A DNA stretch of 64,000 nt from Escherichia coli. GTDB lineage: Bacteria; Pseudomonadota; Gammaproteobacteria; Enterobacterales; Enterobacteriaceae. Of this stretch, positions 284 to 6,566 are shown piece by piece. The notes below the pieces were generated by a model. That model did no database searches and was not told the DNA's origin. It saw only the letters and a list, made by a program, of their open reading frames with translations. Location of the stretch: the NCBI RefSeq assembly GCF_965641715.1, contig NZ_OZ282453.1; one strand, 5' to 3'. Both the position numbers and the translations under genes were made by a program. Position 1 is the first letter of the stretch, and the number at the start of each line of letters is the position of its first letter.

Positions 284-2029
284 ATGATAAAACCGACGTT
301 TTTACGCCGGGTGGCCATTGCTGCTCTGTTCACAGGAAGTTGTTTTAGTACGGTAGCCGCGCCACCTGCGCCGTCTCCTGTTTCTTACGGCGTGGAGGAA
401 GATGTCTTTCATCCGGTACGCGCGAAACAGGGGATGGTGGCATCTGTAGATGCTACTGCCACTCAGGTGGGGGTGGATATCCTCAAGGAGGGCGGGAATG
501 CCGTTGATGCCGCCGTGGCTGTGGGCTACGCGCTGGCGGTAACGCATCCGCAGGCAGGGAATCTGGGCGGTGGTGGTTTTATGCTGATCCGCTCGAAAAA
601 TGGCAATACCACCGCTATCGATTTCCGCGAAATGGCACCCGCCAAAGCGACCCGCGATATGTTCCTTGATGACCAGGGCAACCCGGACAGCAAAAAATCA
701 CTCACTTCGCATCTGGCTTCCGGCACGCCCGGTACGGTCGCTGGTTTCTCGCTGGCGTTGGATAAATACGGCACAATGCCGTTGAACAAAGTGGTGCAGC
801 CAGCGTTTAAACTGGCACGCGATGGTTTTATCGTTAACGACGCGCTGGCTGACGATCTCAAAACCTACGGGAGCGAAGTGCTGCCGAATCACGAAAACAG
901 CAAGGCTATCTTCTGGAAAGAGGGCGAGCCGCTGAAAAAGGGCGACAAGCTGGTGCAGGCGAACCTGGCAAAGAGCCTGGAGATGATTGCCGAAAACGGC
1001 CCGGACGAATTCTACAAAGGCACGATAGCGGAACAGATTGCCCAGGAGATGCAGAAAAACGGTGGCCTGATCACTAAAGAAGATTTAGCGGCGTATAAAG
1101 CGGTCGAACGCACACCGATAAGCGGCGATTATCGCGGGTATCAGGTTTACTCTATGCCACCGCCATCTTCCGGTGGGATTCATATCGTGCAGATCCTCAA
1201 TATTCTGGAAAACTTCGATATGAAGAAATACGGCTTTGGCAGTGCCGATGCGATGCAAATCATGGCAGAGGCTGAGAAATACGCCTACGCCGACCGCTCG
1301 GAATATCTTGGCGACCCGGATTTTGTCAAAGTCCCGTGGCAGGCGCTGACCAATAAAGCCTATGCCAAATCTATTGCCGAGCAAATCGATATCAATAAAG
1401 CGAAACCGTCCAGCGAGATTCGCCCTGGCAAGCTTGCGCCTTATGAGAGTAATCAAACTACCCATTACTCAGTGGTGGATAAAGACGGTAACGCCGTGGC
1501 GGTGACCTATACGCTGAACACCACCTTCGGTACGGGTATTGTCGCGGGCGAGAGCGGTATTCTGCTTAATAACCAGATGGATGATTTCTCCGCCAAACCG
1601 GGCGTACCGAACGTTTACGGGCTGGTAGGCGGTGATGCCAACGCGGTCGGGCCGAATAAACGCCCGCTGTCGTCGATGTCACCAACCATTGTGGTGAAAG
1701 ACGGTAAAACCTGGCTGGTTACCGGTAGCCCTGGCGGGAGCCGGATTATTACCACCGTGCTGCAAATGGTGGTGAATAGCATCGATTATGGCATGAACGT
1801 CGCCGAAGCGACCAATGCGCCGCGTTTCCACCATCAGTGGTTGCCGGACGAGCTGCGTGTCGAAAAAGGGTTTAGCCCGGATACGCTCAAACTGCTGGAA
1901 GCAAAAGGTCAGAAAGTGGCGCTGAAAGAGGCGATGGGCAGTACACAAAGCATTATGGTTGGGCCGGACGGTGAGTTGTACGGCGCATCCGACCCGCGCT
2001 CGGTGGATGATTTAACGGCGGGGTACTAA
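284..2029 (+). CDS. ggt: gamma-glutamyltranspeptidase (periplasmic, Ntn-hydrolase)
   Basis: ORF track 257..2029; N-terminus MIKPTFLRRVAIAAL... signal peptide from the ATG at 284; conserved autoprocessing region ...SNQTTHYSVVD...; full-length match to E. coli GGT as recalled. Confidence 0.95.
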   Translation: MIKPTFLRRVAIAALFTGSCFSTVAAPPAPSPVSYGVEEDVFHPVRAKQGMVASVDATATQVGVDILKEGGNAVDAAVAVGYALAVTHPQAGNLGGGGFMLIRSKNGNTTAIDFREMAPAKATRDMFLDDQGNPDSKKSLTSHLASGTPGTVAGFSLALDKYGTMPLNKVVQPAFKLARDGFIVNDALADDLKTYGSEVLPNHENSKAIFWKEGEPLKKGDKLVQANLAKSLEMIAENGPDEFYKGTIAEQIAQEMQKNGGLITKEDLAAYKAVERTPISGDYRGYQVYSMPPPSSGGIHIVQILNILENFDMKKYGFGSADAMQIMAEAEKYAYADRSEYLGDPDFVKVPWQALTNKAYAKSIAEQIDINKAKPSSEIRPGKLAPYESNQTTHYSVVDKDGNAVAVTYTLNTTFGTGIVAGESGILLNNQMDDFSAKPGVPNVYGLVGGDANAVGPNKRPLSSMSPTIVVKDGKTWLVTGSPGGSRIITTVLQMVVNSIDYGMNVAEATNAPRFHHQWLPDELRVEKGFSPDTLKLLEAKGQKVALKEAMGSTQSIMVGPDGELYGASDPRSVDDLTAGY

Positions 2030-2037
2030 GGTTAGCG

Positions 2038-2066
2038 GCCCTCTTCGTGGGAAGAGGGCTATTTTG
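2038..2066. terminator. Rho-independent terminator hairpin shared by convergent ggt and yrhB
   Basis: Stem GCCCTCTTC (2038..2046) / GAAGAGGGC (2051..2059), loop GTGG, followed by TATTTTG. Confidence 0.7.
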
Positions 2067-2351
2067 TCAGGGCAAGCCGAAGGTAGCCTTTTTTATTTCG
2101 TAATCCTGTAGATATTCTTCCAGCGGCTTTGCCGTTCCCAGAGAATGAATTTCACCACTGTCTTTATCAATAATAAAAGGTGCGTTACCAGCTAAGCGCG
2201 CGGCCTCATCTCCAGTTTCGAGAAATTCTCGTGCTTCGAAACAGAAATACCAGCCCTGGCTAAAGCGTCCATGTAGAGTAATGACGACCGGGAGATCTGC
2301 ATCATCAAGGTAATGGTTCGCTTTCGCGAATGCGTCGTGATAAGTAATCAT
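2067..2351 (-). CDS. yrhB: small 94-aa protein at the position of K-12 yrhB
   Basis: ORF track 2067..2351 (94 aa); size and position next to ggt match K-12 yrhB (recalled); the sequence itself was not independently recognised. Confidence 0.55.
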   Translation of the reverse strand: MITYHDAFAKANHYLDDADLPVVITLHGRFSQGWYFCFEAREFLETGDEAARLAGNAPFIIDKDSGEIHSLGTAKPLEEYLQDYEIKKATFGLP

Positions 2352-2800
2352 AATTATAATAAATATTATTGTTGAATGTTATATTATTATTCCTGTGTGA
2401 TACATTGAGCAAAGGTGCATTCATCTTCGTCAAAGATATTATTAAATGCTGGTTTTGAAAAAAGTTCATCGGATAAGATATAGTCACGAAATAAGTATCT
2501 GCTAATATTTTGTGATTTCTTTTTCAGAACGTCGAACGGGATTTTCTTATTTAAGATATCAGAATCTTATGATTTGGGTAAAATTCTAAATAAATCAACA
2601 TGTCACTAAAATCATCATAGCCATTAGCTATTTCGGCTAAAATAGAGACTACATGTCTTCGGTCCATCTCACTTAAGGAGTGTAGTTCCGTTGTAAGTTT
2701 TTCCATAGCTTGCATTGCTAAATTTCGAACAAGGAATTTTCTGGTGGTAATCTCTAAAAAGATGGCATGGTTTACAATGATTTTTGTTTCCTTTTGATTA

Positions 2801-3295
2801 TTATGAACAACTATCCATGATTTCGTTTAAGAATGAAGAGAAATCACTAAACGAACTGAATATATTTTCTGTGCCAATATTATCTCTAATTTCAAAAAAG
2901 TTACTTTTAATGTCATAAGTAAATATTGAAATGCTATCATCCCCGATCACTAACCGTTCTTGTAGATCAGGGTTTATGAAATCATCATTATTTCTATAAA
3001 ATTCATTTACGGCAAAAAGGTTTTTAACTGAAGGTTCTGGAATCGAGAGGCTAAATAATCGCAATCCATTAACTTCGAATCCATCCATTGCTCTTAAAAA
3101 AGTAAGATAATCAGGTTGATTCTTAAAAAGAATACTAACTTCATTACATAACTTCTCCAGGCAATTAGTTGAATTAGAATTAAATTCTATTTGGATTATA
3201 CTTTCAATAAATGATTCCTTGAGCGGTGCTTCAAATGGATAGTCTAAATCATTCATCATTTTTATTAATTTGTTTATTTGGGTTTTAGTCATCAT
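2801..3295 (-). CDS. putative immunity protein for the upstream HNH-like toxin domain (position of K-12 yrhA)
   Basis: 164-aa acidic ORF; its ATG overlaps the stop of the toxin-domain ORF (ATGA overlap at 3292..3295); AT-rich codon usage like the neighbouring Hcp gene. Confidence 0.5.
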   Translation of the reverse strand: MMTKTQINKLIKMMNDLDYPFEAPLKESFIESIIQIEFNSNSTNCLEKLCNEVSILFKNQPDYLTFLRAMDGFEVNGLRLFSLSIPEPSVKNLFAVNEFYRNNDDFINPDLQERLVIGDDSISIFTYDIKSNFFEIRDNIGTENIFSSFSDFSSFLNEIMDSCS

Positions 3296-3678
3296 TTTGT
3301 GGGTTCCATAATATTTTTCATGGGAGGATAAATTGAGCCAGATGGAATGGCCCAGGGAGTGATTTTGCTTTCACCTACTAATATTCCCTTAGCTATTCGT
3401 GATTGCATGTTAGTAAAAACTTTATGATATGGTTCGTTTTCGATTAATACTAAATTTTCGAAATCATTAGTACCACCATCATCTAGAGATAGTTTATGGT
3501 GAACATTATAATTTAGAGGAACATAGCCCTTTCTCATTCTTAAAAGGTCTTCGGTGTTGAATCTTCCAGATGCTTCGGAGGTTTTTGCAAGTTTGATAAG
3601 AAAATTTTTTCTTACAGTTTTGTTAAACTCCTTTCGTAAGTTAGCTAAGTCTTTTGAAGGTCTCTTAATGTATATTAT
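3292..3678 (-). other. C-terminal HNH-like nuclease toxin domain of an Hcp-toxin fusion (yhhZ-like), in frame with the Hcp ORF but separated from it by one TAA
   Basis: Frame arithmetic: 4470-3537=933 (multiple of 3); the 47 codons between the TAA (3679..3681) and the ATG at 3535..3537 contain no stop and translate cleanly (IIYIKRPSKDLANLRKEFNKTV...); HNH-type motif NVHHKLSLDDGGTNDFENLVLIENEPYHK. Confidence 0.55.
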
Positions 3679-4470
3679 TTATATTATGTCTATGCCATCA
3701 AGAAGTTTTTGTTGATCTCTAAGTTTGCCTAAGTAACTATTTATTTCTGTATATGTATCAACTTTAGAACGCTTTGTTAAAAGAATAGATGCTGTTGCTA
3801 TCGCTATGCCCGCTGTTTTTTCATTTAGTATTTGATCATAGCCTTTGATTGCATCTCCACCCAGTTTTTCCGCAGTATCTCTGAATCCTTCAATGTTCCC
3901 ATTGTATACGCCACCAGCAGCAAGTAGCCTGCCAACAGCTTTGCTGTTTAACGTTTTGAAACGATTATTTGTTTGGTTTTTTGAATTTGGTAAAAACAAA
4001 CGGTTATAATTTTCAGGGAGTGCCAAATAGCTGAACTCGGTATTTGCGATAAGATGTTGACAGAGGATAAATTCATAACTAACAGTTATTGTTTCTGTAT
4101 CCAGTTGATTTTGAATGATCTGATGATGAATAGCCGATAAAAAAGCGCCTCTTAGTTGTGTATAATAATACTTTTCCCATCTACCAAATCTATTGATTCT
4201 ATAAAAGTCAAATTTCATAAATAATTGCTCATTATTGTTAATGGAATTAATAAGTAATGGAGTGCTTTTATCAATTAATTTACAAAATGTCATAGCCTGT
4301 AACTGTGAACCAAGCCCCGTATTAGTAATTCTATTTTCGAGTGAGAATGTAAATATTTCATTCTCATGCCCGCTCTGCCAGCGATTACCTATAGATTCAG
4401 TAGTCCCACAACCTGCGGAGATGCTTCCTTGTTGTTCTCCCGTTACTGTCAGATAAACAATATTACTCAT
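3679..4470 (-). CDS. yhhZ: Hcp (type VI secretion tube protein) domain with C-terminal extension; N-terminal part of a yhhZ-like Hcp-toxin fusion ending at an in-frame TAA
   Basis: N-terminus MSNIVYLTVTGEQQGSISAGCGTTESIGNRWQSGHENEIFTFS is Hcp-like; 263 codons to TAA at 3679..3681; ORFs 3679..4470 and 3292..3537 share one frame; combined length ~392 codons equals K-12 YhhZ as recalled. Confidence 0.7.
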   Translation of the reverse strand: MSNIVYLTVTGEQQGSISAGCGTTESIGNRWQSGHENEIFTFSLENRITNTGLGSQLQAMTFCKLIDKSTPLLINSINNNEQLFMKFDFYRINRFGRWEKYYYTQLRGAFLSAIHHQIIQNQLDTETITVSYEFILCQHLIANTEFSYLALPENYNRLFLPNSKNQTNNRFKTLNSKAVGRLLAAGGVYNGNIEGFRDTAEKLGGDAIKGYDQILNEKTAGIAIATASILLTKRSKVDTYTEINSYLGKLRDQQKLLDGIDII

Positions 4471-4706
4471 CCCTGAAAAGTCCTTTTATGGCATGCTATT
4501 TTATCAATGGCACTATTATGCTTGTTAATTGTTATTTATTTACTCCAGGAAATTGTAGGCGTATATATTAAAAAATAAAATATTACACTTTAGGAAGTAA
4601 TTATGAGGTAAGTCTCAATATATTTATTGGGAAAATAAATACATTAAAGGAAGGTATGCCGATTTTGAATGACACCCTTTTTCCATCTCAGAAAAAGGGC
4701 ACTATT

Positions 4707-5195
4707 TTACTTCACCCGCGCCATAAAATACGCATCAACATATTCACCATTACGTAATGCGTACTTCTTGCCAGTCCCTTCAATCTCAAAGCCGAATTTT
4801 TTATAGACCTTAATTGCTGGCGCGTTATCGACAAACACCGTTAGCTCAATACGATCTACCCGCAACCAGTTGTCGCACATTTCAATCATCTCTCGCATCA
4901 GGGCGCTGGCGACGCCGCGATTCTTCCAGCGGGCGTCGACACAGATACCAAAATCGGCAACATGACTGCGGCGTGGGCGCTGTTGCACGTCAATGGTGAG
5001 ATGGCCCACGACGTCTCCATCAATACAGGCGACGAGTTGCTTGATGCCGGGACGATTGGCGAGTCGCTCCTGCCACATATAATCGGAAGGATGAGGCACT
5101 TGTAGCGTGTTGTAATACACCTCCGGCTGGGCGTGAATCTGCCTGATGGCCTCGTAATCGCGCGTTTCAGCATGGCGTATCACTATCTCACTCAT
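4707..5195 (-). CDS. yhhY: GNAT-family N-acetyltransferase
   Basis: ORF track 4707..5273; likely start at the ATG 5193..5195 (MSEIVIRHAETRDYEAIRQIH...) preceded by GAGGA; 162 aa. Confidence 0.85.
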   Translation of the reverse strand: MSEIVIRHAETRDYEAIRQIHAQPEVYYNTLQVPHPSDYMWQERLANRPGIKQLVACIDGDVVGHLTIDVQQRPRRSHVADFGICVDARWKNRGVASALMREMIEMCDNWLRVDRIELTVFVDNAPAIKVYKKFGFEIEGTGKKYALRNGEYVDAYFMARVK

Positions 5196-5528
5196 TCCTT
5201 TGTCCTCTTTGGGGTAAATGTCCCTTTCAACATCATTGACTTTCGAATGCGAGTCAAATGCATTTTTTTGCAAAAAGTGTTGGACAAGTGCGAATGAGAA
5301 TGATTATTATTGTCTCGCGATCAGGAAGACCCTCGCGGAGAACCTGAAAGCACGACATTGCTCACATTGCTTCCAGTATTACTTAGCCAGCCGGGTGCTG
5401 GCTTTTTTTTTGATCTTTCGTTCTCAATTTATCCTCGGGAAGTGCTTGTGTTCGTTATGCGCACTCCAGTAGGAACCACGTCCGCTTTGCGCTAAGGTGT
5501 AAATAACCACCTTAAAAAGGACGAAATC

Positions 5529-6566
5529 ATGGTCATCAACTGCGCCTTTATTGGCTTCGGCAAAAGCACCACCCGTTACCATCTGCCGTATGTACTTAAC
5601 CGCAAGGATAGCTGGCATGTCGCGCATATTTTTCGCCGCCATGCAAAGCCGGAAGAACAAGCTCCCATTTACTCTCATATCCATTTCACCAGCGATCTCA
5701 ACGAAGTGCTAAACGATCCCGATGTTAAGCTGGTTGTTGTCTGCACCCATGCGGACAGCCACTTCGAGTACGCGAAGCGCGCGCTGGAAGCCGGGAAAAA
5801 TGTGCTGGTCGAAAAACCGTTCACTCCGACACTTGCGCAGGCGAAAGAGCTGTTTGCACTGGCGAAAAGCAAAGGGCTGACCGTCACGCCATATCAGAAT
5901 CGTCGCTTTGATTCCTGCTTCCTGACGGCGAAAAAAGCGATTGAAAGCGGCAAGCTGGGAGAGATTGTCGAAGTGGAAAGCCATTTTGACTATTACCGCC
6001 CGGTGGCAGAAACCAAACCTGGGCTGCCGCAGGATGGCGCGTTCTATGGCCTTGGTGTGCATACGATGGACCAGATTATTTCTCTGTTCGGTCGCCCGGA
6101 TAACGTCGCTTATGACATCCGCAGCCTGCGCAATAAAGCCAATCCTGACGATACTTTCGAAGCGCAACTGTTTTATGGCGATCTAAAAGCCATCGTCAAA
6201 ACCAGCCATCTGGTGAAAATCGATTATCCGAAATTTATCGTTCATGGTAAGAAAGGTTCGTTTATTAAATACGGTATCGACCAGCAGGAAACCAGCCTGA
6301 AGGCTAATATTATGCCGGGCGAACCGGGATTCGCAGCGGATGATTCGGTCGGTGTGCTGGAGTATGTCAATGACGAGGGCGTGACGGTCAGAGAAGAGAT
6401 GAAGCCGGAGATGGGCGATTACGGGCGCGTTTATGATGCGTTGTATCAAACCATCACCCACGGTGCGCCAAATTACGTCAAGGAATCTGAAGTTCTTACG
6501 AATATGGAAATCCTTGAACGCGGATTCGAGCAAGCCTCTCCCTCCACAGTGACTCTCGCGAAGTAA
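5529..6566 (+). CDS. yhhX: Gfo/Idh/MocA-family NAD(P)-dependent oxidoreductase
   Basis: 345-aa ORF; N-terminal Rossmann motif CAFIGFGKSTTRYHLP. Confidence 0.9.
   Translation: MVINCAFIGFGKSTTRYHLPYVLNRKDSWHVAHIFRRHAKPEEQAPIYSHIHFTSDLNEVLNDPDVKLVVVCTHADSHFEYAKRALEAGKNVLVEKPFTPTLAQAKELFALAKSKGLTVTPYQNRRFDSCFLTAKKAIESGKLGEIVEVESHFDYYRPVAETKPGLPQDGAFYGLGVHTMDQIISLFGRPDNVAYDIRSLRNKANPDDTFEAQLFYGDLKAIVKTSHLVKIDYPKFIVHGKKGSFIKYGIDQQETSLKANIMPGEPGFAADDSVGVLEYVNDEGVTVREEMKPEMGDYGRVYDALYQTITHGAPNYVKESEVLTNMEILERGFEQASPSTVTLAK

Follow-up and report, generated by a model that had tools for sequence, protein, structure and literature searches.

The 236-bp spacer between yhhY and yhhZ of Escherichia coli (positions 4471..4706, minus strand, of the window, which is the whole 64,000-nucleotide stretch of DNA analyzed here) appears to be the yhhY-side edge of an orphan Hcp-HNH island, in which a 3' hairpin/Rho module of yhhY adjoins the cassette-borne 5' region of the toxin gene; we put the probability of this reading at about one half. 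The anatomy of the spacer, its membership of the island, the conservation of the hairpin and of three short upstream blocks, and the lack of any conserved fold at the RNA level were observed directly. The yhhY-yhhZ gap is an ordinary intergenic region with two functional modules; what is mildly new in it is solely the conserved module that diverged Hcp-toxin genes have upstream in common.

The window covers the E. coli neighborhood ggt/yrhB/yrhA/yhhZ/yhhY/ryhB/yhhX/yhhW/gntR, with ggt on the plus strand (257-2029), and the K-12 reference shows an identical gene order, in which the yhhY-yhhZ gap (U00096.3 3581627-3581862) carries no annotation. Both yhhY and yhhZ are read from the minus strand. 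The former is a core gene encoding a 162-aa N-acetyltransferase (4707..5195, from the RefSeq annotation of homologous loci), whose TAA stop codon (4707-4709) marks the island boundary, and the Hcp ATG of the latter occupies 4468-4470. The coordinates that the initial annotation gave for an AT-rich 236-bp spacer between them are exact, and the GC content is 0.297 versus 0.515 for the whole window, an AT-richness equaled by 0.9% of the 236-bp windows in the 64 kb. It is not above that of the island to which the spacer belongs (2300-4706, GC 0.321). When positions 2000-6000 were scanned against Rfam at E <= 1, the spacer gave no match and the only hit was the known RyhB sRNA gene (5346-5410, plus strand, 83 bits), which lies outside the spacer; its promoter and Fur-box region is located around 5281-5315 and its terminator at 5385-5403.

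The entire spacer lies inside a variable, AT-rich island (the yhhZ, yrhA and yrhD region; 2352..4706, minus strand, GC about 0.32) and forms its yhhY-side end. This island is carried by 3,826 of 5,426 complete E. coli genomes (70%), and in 3,817 of the carriers the spacer is 95-99% identical. A 601-bp probe over the region matched 5,292 of the 5,426 genomes and did so at full length in 3,794, and in the remaining roughly 1,500 matching genomes the homology ends at window positions 4706-4711, that is, at the yhhY stop. There the other E. coli arrangements between ggt and yhhY consist of an empty 60-bp junction, yrhB only, or a DUF4225 gene, and reading across the junction reveals a yhhY stop codon that differs per arrangement (TAA, TAG or TGA), followed by unrelated DNA. 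Because the homology stops at the yhhY stop codon and each arrangement continues into unrelated sequence, the palindrome that follows yhhY in the window is supplied by the Hcp island. The proposal that this was a horizontally acquired, AT-rich control region is thus borne out by a variable island present in 70% of genomes with its boundary exactly at the yhhY stop, and its "control region" part holds for the proximal 170 bp, which are the Hcp-toxin gene's own conserved 5' region. Identity bands had suggested that the spacer was more conserved than its neighbors, which direct measurement did not support (pairwise difference 3.7% for the spacer, 3.3% for the Hcp N-terminal region and 5.2% for yhhY). 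The low island diversity of 1-4% could come from recent spread instead of selection.

The junction between ggt and yhhY (window 2030-4709) is a replacement hotspot with four E. coli arrangements, and the same site is occupied by Hcp-toxin cassettes in Citrobacter and Salmonella (loci L002-L005, L010, L021, L023, L024 and L027 for the three groups together). The 294-aa open reading frame (ORF) found there in Citrobacter was compared with the E. coli DUF4225 gene, and no similarity was seen. Insertion sequences have left their marks in the region, too: an IS1-associated deletion in strain ZF31 (L020 2445-3360) removed yhhZ and kept of the spacer only the part from the hairpin through about window position 4548, and an IS1E lies inside yrhA of K-12 (L001 5429-6196).

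The gene downstream of the spacer is the Hcp-HNH effector gene yhhZ, of Hcp-ET1 type, whose Hcp domain (Pfam T6SS_HCP) spans 3679..4470 on the minus strand. In the window a GAA-to-TAA nonsense change at codon 264 (3679-3681) breaks it into two ORFs, one of 263 aa with Hcp alone and one of 81 aa with HNH (3292-3537); the intact gene encodes 392 aa in K-12 and at locus L018. The closest relative, PapRG-04-4, has it intact, and in strain S88 it is annotated as a pseudogene, with a stop of independent origin at codon 267. That two such stops fall at the Hcp/toxin linker, three codons from each other, suggests that the toxin domain has been lost repeatedly. On the ggt side the island is adjoined by yrhB (2067-2351, minus strand), which matches Pfam Imm35 (immunity protein 35) with an E value of 4e-23, and the 164-aa yrhA ORF (2801-3295, minus strand) shares 4 nt with the end of the HNH ORF, a usual layout for toxin-immunity pairs. 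The Imm35 match of yrhB and the overlap of yrhA indicate at least two immunity-type genes in the island. In the review PMC6730261, orphan Hcp-ET effectors (Hcp with a C-terminal toxin) are described as forming effector-immunity cassettes in Enterobacteriaceae (Ma et al. 2017), and the present locus resembles them in that yhhZ is an Hcp-HNH fusion followed by immunity-type genes, of which yrhB matches Imm35.

Next to the yhhY stop the initial annotation had described a palindrome with a 9-nt loop, possibly the yhhY terminator. Both arms, CCCTTTTT (4675-4682) and AAAAAGGG (4692-4699), are present and the palindrome is real, but it is larger than described, with a 9-bp stem and a 7-nt loop: CCCTTTTTC-TGAGATG-GAAAAAGGG (4675..4699, minus strand), which may serve the yhhY mRNA as a protective 3' stem-loop or as a weak terminator. 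The hairpin begins 7 nt past the stop codon. In the minus-strand, yhhY-sense RNA it comprises 11 pairs including G-U (4674-4700), with a folding energy of -14.2 kcal/mol (z -4.6), and the plus-strand fold is weaker (-10.8 kcal/mol, z -3.5). Since a perfect inverted repeat of at least 9 bp with a loop of 3-12 nt appeared in 125 of 5,000 spacer shuffles (2.5%), an origin by chance is moderately unlikely, and the palindrome gains extra weight from its position directly behind the stop together with its near-invariance in about 3,820 genomes.

With at most two mismatches per 47 nt, the hairpin was found in 3,822 of 3,828 genomes, at a median of one place per genome and always adjoining yhhY; this single-copy occurrence rules out a REP/BIME-like dispersed repeat. 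Among nine haplotypes the hairpin is invariant, and most substitutions of the spacer gather in the adjoining 56 nt (4619..4674, minus strand). No other part of the spacer is as polymorphic as this variable linker, which could not be aligned to other cassette types; with a sense RNA rich in C and poor in G, it is a candidate Rho loading (rut) region. It also contains a second perfect inverted repeat of 8 bp (4621-4641, TATTTATT-gggaa-AATAAATA), which is probably a chance product of AT-rich DNA, because it is imperfect in K-12 (TATGTATT...). Equally stable hairpins of unrelated sequence follow yhhY elsewhere, in Citrobacter (-13.3 kcal/mol) and in E. coli with the empty site (-20.1 kcal/mol, a hairpin shared by ggt and yhhY). 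Folding of the E. coli arrangements with a DUF4225 gene or with yrhB only gave no convincing hairpin after yhhY, which shows that the gene can dispense with it. The yhhY of Salmonella survives as a remnant between RyhB and the Hcp cassette (L027 2000-2260; also L023 and L024), consisting of about 100 nt of the 5' end and a few 3' bases. In the homologous Salmonella segment the fold is lost at L023 and L027 (-4 kcal/mol), and a stable fold of -12.1 kcal/mol, built from a different sequence, persists at L024. A general decay of the hairpin upon loss of yhhY fits the first two loci and does not fit the third, so the link between hairpin and yhhY is not clean: one Salmonella lineage lost the fold and another keeps it.

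What the hairpin may do for yhhY is suggested by its flanks. The yhhY-sense tail that follows it, UGUCAUUC, is without a U-tract. In the 88 nt 3' of the hairpin, the sense strand has 18 C, 7 G, 28 A and 35 T, a count that describes composition and not Rho binding. Dar and Sorek (PMC6061677) reported that E. coli mRNAs terminated by Rho have, at their steady-state 3' ends, stable stem-loops that lack a U-rich tail and have rut sites directly downstream. The yhhY hairpin resembles this class in its stability, in its place just behind the gene, in having no U-rich stretch after it and in being succeeded by C-rich, G-poor RNA; it differs in that its assignment is made from anatomy alone. The published datasets examined contain no experimentally mapped 3' end or transcription start of either yhhY or yhhZ, and neither gene has an entry in the PMC7815308 Term-seq tables examined. 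Because the U-tract is missing and the downstream RNA is C-rich and G-poor, a protective 3' stem-loop of a Rho-terminated transcript fits better than an intrinsic terminator, and by analogy of its anatomy the hairpin is most likely a Rho-associated protective 3' stem-loop for yhhY.

Three other explanations of the hairpin have to be weighed against this one. That it is a classical Rho-independent terminator of yhhY seems rather unlikely to us. The hairpin is well placed, stable and conserved, and the sense-strand tail, UGUCAUUCAAAA, has U in 4 of its first 8 bases, just below the threshold of our consensus terminator scan (5 U among the first 8 tail bases). Yet this tail never runs to more than two U, the scan made no call on the minus strand, and the hairpin comes with the island instead of the core yhhY locus. 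The ggt terminator (2037-2060) and the RyhB terminator (5385-5403) likewise are stem-loops directly after a gene, but they have G+C-rich stems followed by T-runs, whereas the yhhY stem is A/U-rich, closed at its base by only 3 G-C pairs, or by 4 if the 11-pair RNA form is taken, and has no sense-strand U-tract.

The scan did call the hairpin terminator-like on the plus strand, with the tail CACTATTTTA, which raises the question of whether it acts there and stops spurious or antisense island transcripts that would otherwise enter yhhY antisense; it could even end a small plus-strand RNA starting near 4585. A TTGTAG-N17-TAAAAT match on the plus strand ends at 4581, and spurious promoters are known in AT-rich, H-NS-bound DNA (PMC3661553). 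We nevertheless regard this as highly unlikely: the T-rich tail is limited to the window and L018, seven of nine haplotypes having CACTATCTTAC in its place, so that the majority allele lacks it; the fold on this strand is the weaker one; there is no Rfam match; and promoter-like matches are at chance level. It is also very unlikely, in our estimate, that the palindrome is functionless, an inverted repeat due to chance that travels with an island of recent spread and low diversity. The shuffles produce such a repeat in 2.5% of cases, the overall diversity of the island is low, there is no covariation to draw on, and two other arrangements manage with no hairpin after yhhY; against this, the palindrome is invariant while the adjoining 56 nt gather substitutions, it sits directly after the stop codon, and the Citrobacter and empty-site arrangements have hairpins analogous to it.

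The second module came to light when upstream regions were compared among Hcp-toxin genes with 71-77% identity to yhhZ in the Hcp domain. About 170 nt could be aligned in 8 of 10 retrieved upstream regions, which come from Escherichia, Citrobacter and Salmonella and from three or more chromosomal sites: behind the 294-aa ORF at the yhhY-ggt site in Citrobacter, at the yhhX/RyhB-ggt site in Salmonella, behind a dienelactone-hydrolase gene, and next to the SIS/PTS-metE locus. Three short blocks stand out, all on the minus strand, with identities given as the mean pairwise value among five independent cassette types. Block 1 (4597..4618, sense TTGAGACTTACCTCATAATTAC, consensus cAGAyTnnCCTcAaAAAAac) has an identity of 0.68 and is possibly a UP-element-like A-tract. 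Block 2 (4560..4593, sense CTAAAGTGTAATATTTTATTTTTTAATATATACG, family consensus yTAAAGTGAAAC(A/G)TTTT(A/G)TTT..TATATAC) reaches 0.83 in its core and is a candidate promoter/operator core. Block 3 (4536..4546, sense GGAGTAAATAA, family consensus GGCGTAAATAA) has an identity of 0.73. Additionally, a Shine-Dalgarno-like AAAAGGA (4481..4487) located 10 nt before the Hcp ATG is kept across cassette types. For the same five types the upstream region outside the blocks has an identity of 0.47-0.52, and the neutral proxies, taken from the adjacent Hcp coding sequence, amount to 0.52 (third codon positions) and 0.42 (fourfold sites); as the blocks were picked after seeing the alignment, this comparison of blocks with neutral values is indicative and not a formal test. 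Within block 2, the T-run TTTTATTTTTT (about 4566-4576) varies in length, being 1 nt shorter at L016 and 3 nt shorter at L017 and L019, and such variants would alter the spacing of elements if the flanking blocks are promoter elements.

A structured RNA leader, riboswitch or sRNA was ruled out as the basis of this conservation, as 11 homologous 5' regions share no conserved RNA fold (consensus -1.04 kcal/mol, with an unfavorable covariation term of +0.37 kcal/mol) and Rfam gives no match; the same two observations indicate that the constraint on the proximal module acts on DNA. It may be that the proximal 170 bp are a portable regulatory module moving with one orphan Hcp-toxin subfamily from site to site in the chromosome and from genus to genus, and that the near-invariant TGAAAC-(A/G)-TTTT core is the operator of a shared regulator, an idea that we hold as tentative and rather doubtful. 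The block 2 version of Citrobacter, AGTGAAACGTTTTA, fits the LacI-family or Cra-type consensus, RSTGAAWCSNTHHW. The degenerate copy of E. coli yhhZ, GTGTAATATTTT, could then mean escape from, or loss of, control by the shared regulator. Inspected by eye, block 2 contains no sigma-28-, sigma-32-, CRP-, PhoP- or OmpR-like pattern that fits in spacing. The conserved 19-mer of block 2 was also tried as a specific marker and rejected, since an Hcp gene follows in just 4 of the 120 metagenome matches that were sampled.

The best sigma-70-like match, TTAACA-N19-TGaTAAAAT with an extended -10 (4498..4528, minus strand), ends its -10 element 28 nt before the ATG; it is present in E. coli yhhZ only and is not conserved in the other cassette types. 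It is no more than a candidate, because the 7 loose sigma-70 matches on the sense strand of the spacer equal the shuffle expectation of 7.0 +/- 3.0. A paper from 2025 cites two yhhZ promoters, yhhZp5 and yhhZp7, and gives no mapping data for them. No sigma-70 -35/-10 pair is conserved across cassette types, and no RpoD-holoenzyme genomic-SELEX peak is listed in the spacer, the listed peaks lying further into the island. These two negatives would agree with yhhZ having no promoter of its own and being co-transcribed with yhhY, the blocks serving as H-NS nucleation or DNA-shape elements or reflecting slowly diverging ancestry; the A-tract-rich blocks do resemble H-NS-preferred DNA, and read-through from yhhY into yhhZ is plausible because the hairpin lacks a U-tract. 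Even so, we consider co-transcription quite unlikely as the explanation. The same 5' region also precedes Hcp-ET genes that stand behind unrelated or divergent genes (the 294-aa ORF, the dienelactone hydrolase gene and the divergent SIS gene), so it cannot depend on yhhY transcription, and the 0.83 of the block 2 core compared with the neutral 0.42-0.52 argues for sequence-specific constraint. It seems that the blocks are better taken as part of a 5' region belonging to the toxin gene.

Silencing of the spacer by H-NS, suggested when the region was first annotated, is plausible from its composition and context. The spacer has the features of a xenogeneic region, with its GC of 0.297 versus 0.515 and its place in variably present DNA, and it holds 2 near-matches to the H-NS high-affinity motif TCGATAAATT versus 0.75 expected. 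In published work (PMC3661553, Table 1; Kahramanoglou and Oshima datasets), "promoter islands" that lie within the K-12 genes yhhZ and yrhA are recorded as bound by H-NS. The spacer resembles those promoter islands in being about 70% AT, in belonging to a variably present island and in having many promoter-like matches, and it is like the H-NS-silenced regions of that study in that the neighboring yhhZ and yrhA sequence has published H-NS occupancy. It is unlike them in that the promoter islands lie inside yhhZ and yrhA and not in the spacer, whose density of promoter-like matches is that expected from shuffles. The literature searched yielded neither hns-mutant expression data for the locus nor H-NS binding data for the spacer itself. 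As the proximal module is embedded in about 2.4 kb of 68% AT DNA, H-NS probably holds the yhhZ 5' region at low expression, with occupancy presumably extending over the spacer itself.

From the two modules the following course of events may be proposed. Transcription of yhhY would run past the stop codon and be ended by Rho within the spacer, and the RNA would then be trimmed back to the hairpin, which may protect the 3' end of the mRNA; any leak-through past the hairpin would read into yhhZ. In the proximal 170 bp, the three short blocks, apparently under purifying selection, would act as candidate promoter/operator elements for some factor, next to the conserved ribosome-binding site.

For the Hcp-toxin cassettes of Escherichia, Citrobacter and Salmonella, the junction between ggt and yhhY is a hotspot of recombination. 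The Hcp-ET literature, as far as it was consulted, deals with the proteins and not with shared upstream DNA, so the module described here is an addition to it and not a contradiction. The spacer matters little alone, and the content of the unannotated yhhY-yhhZ gap, K-12 included, is now documented. If the tentative shared regulator is real, type VI effectors scattered over the chromosome would be expressed in response to a single physiological signal; and if the blocks are a shared operator, they would help in studying how the regulation of orphan type VI effectors is coupled to that of a secretion apparatus whose genes lie elsewhere.
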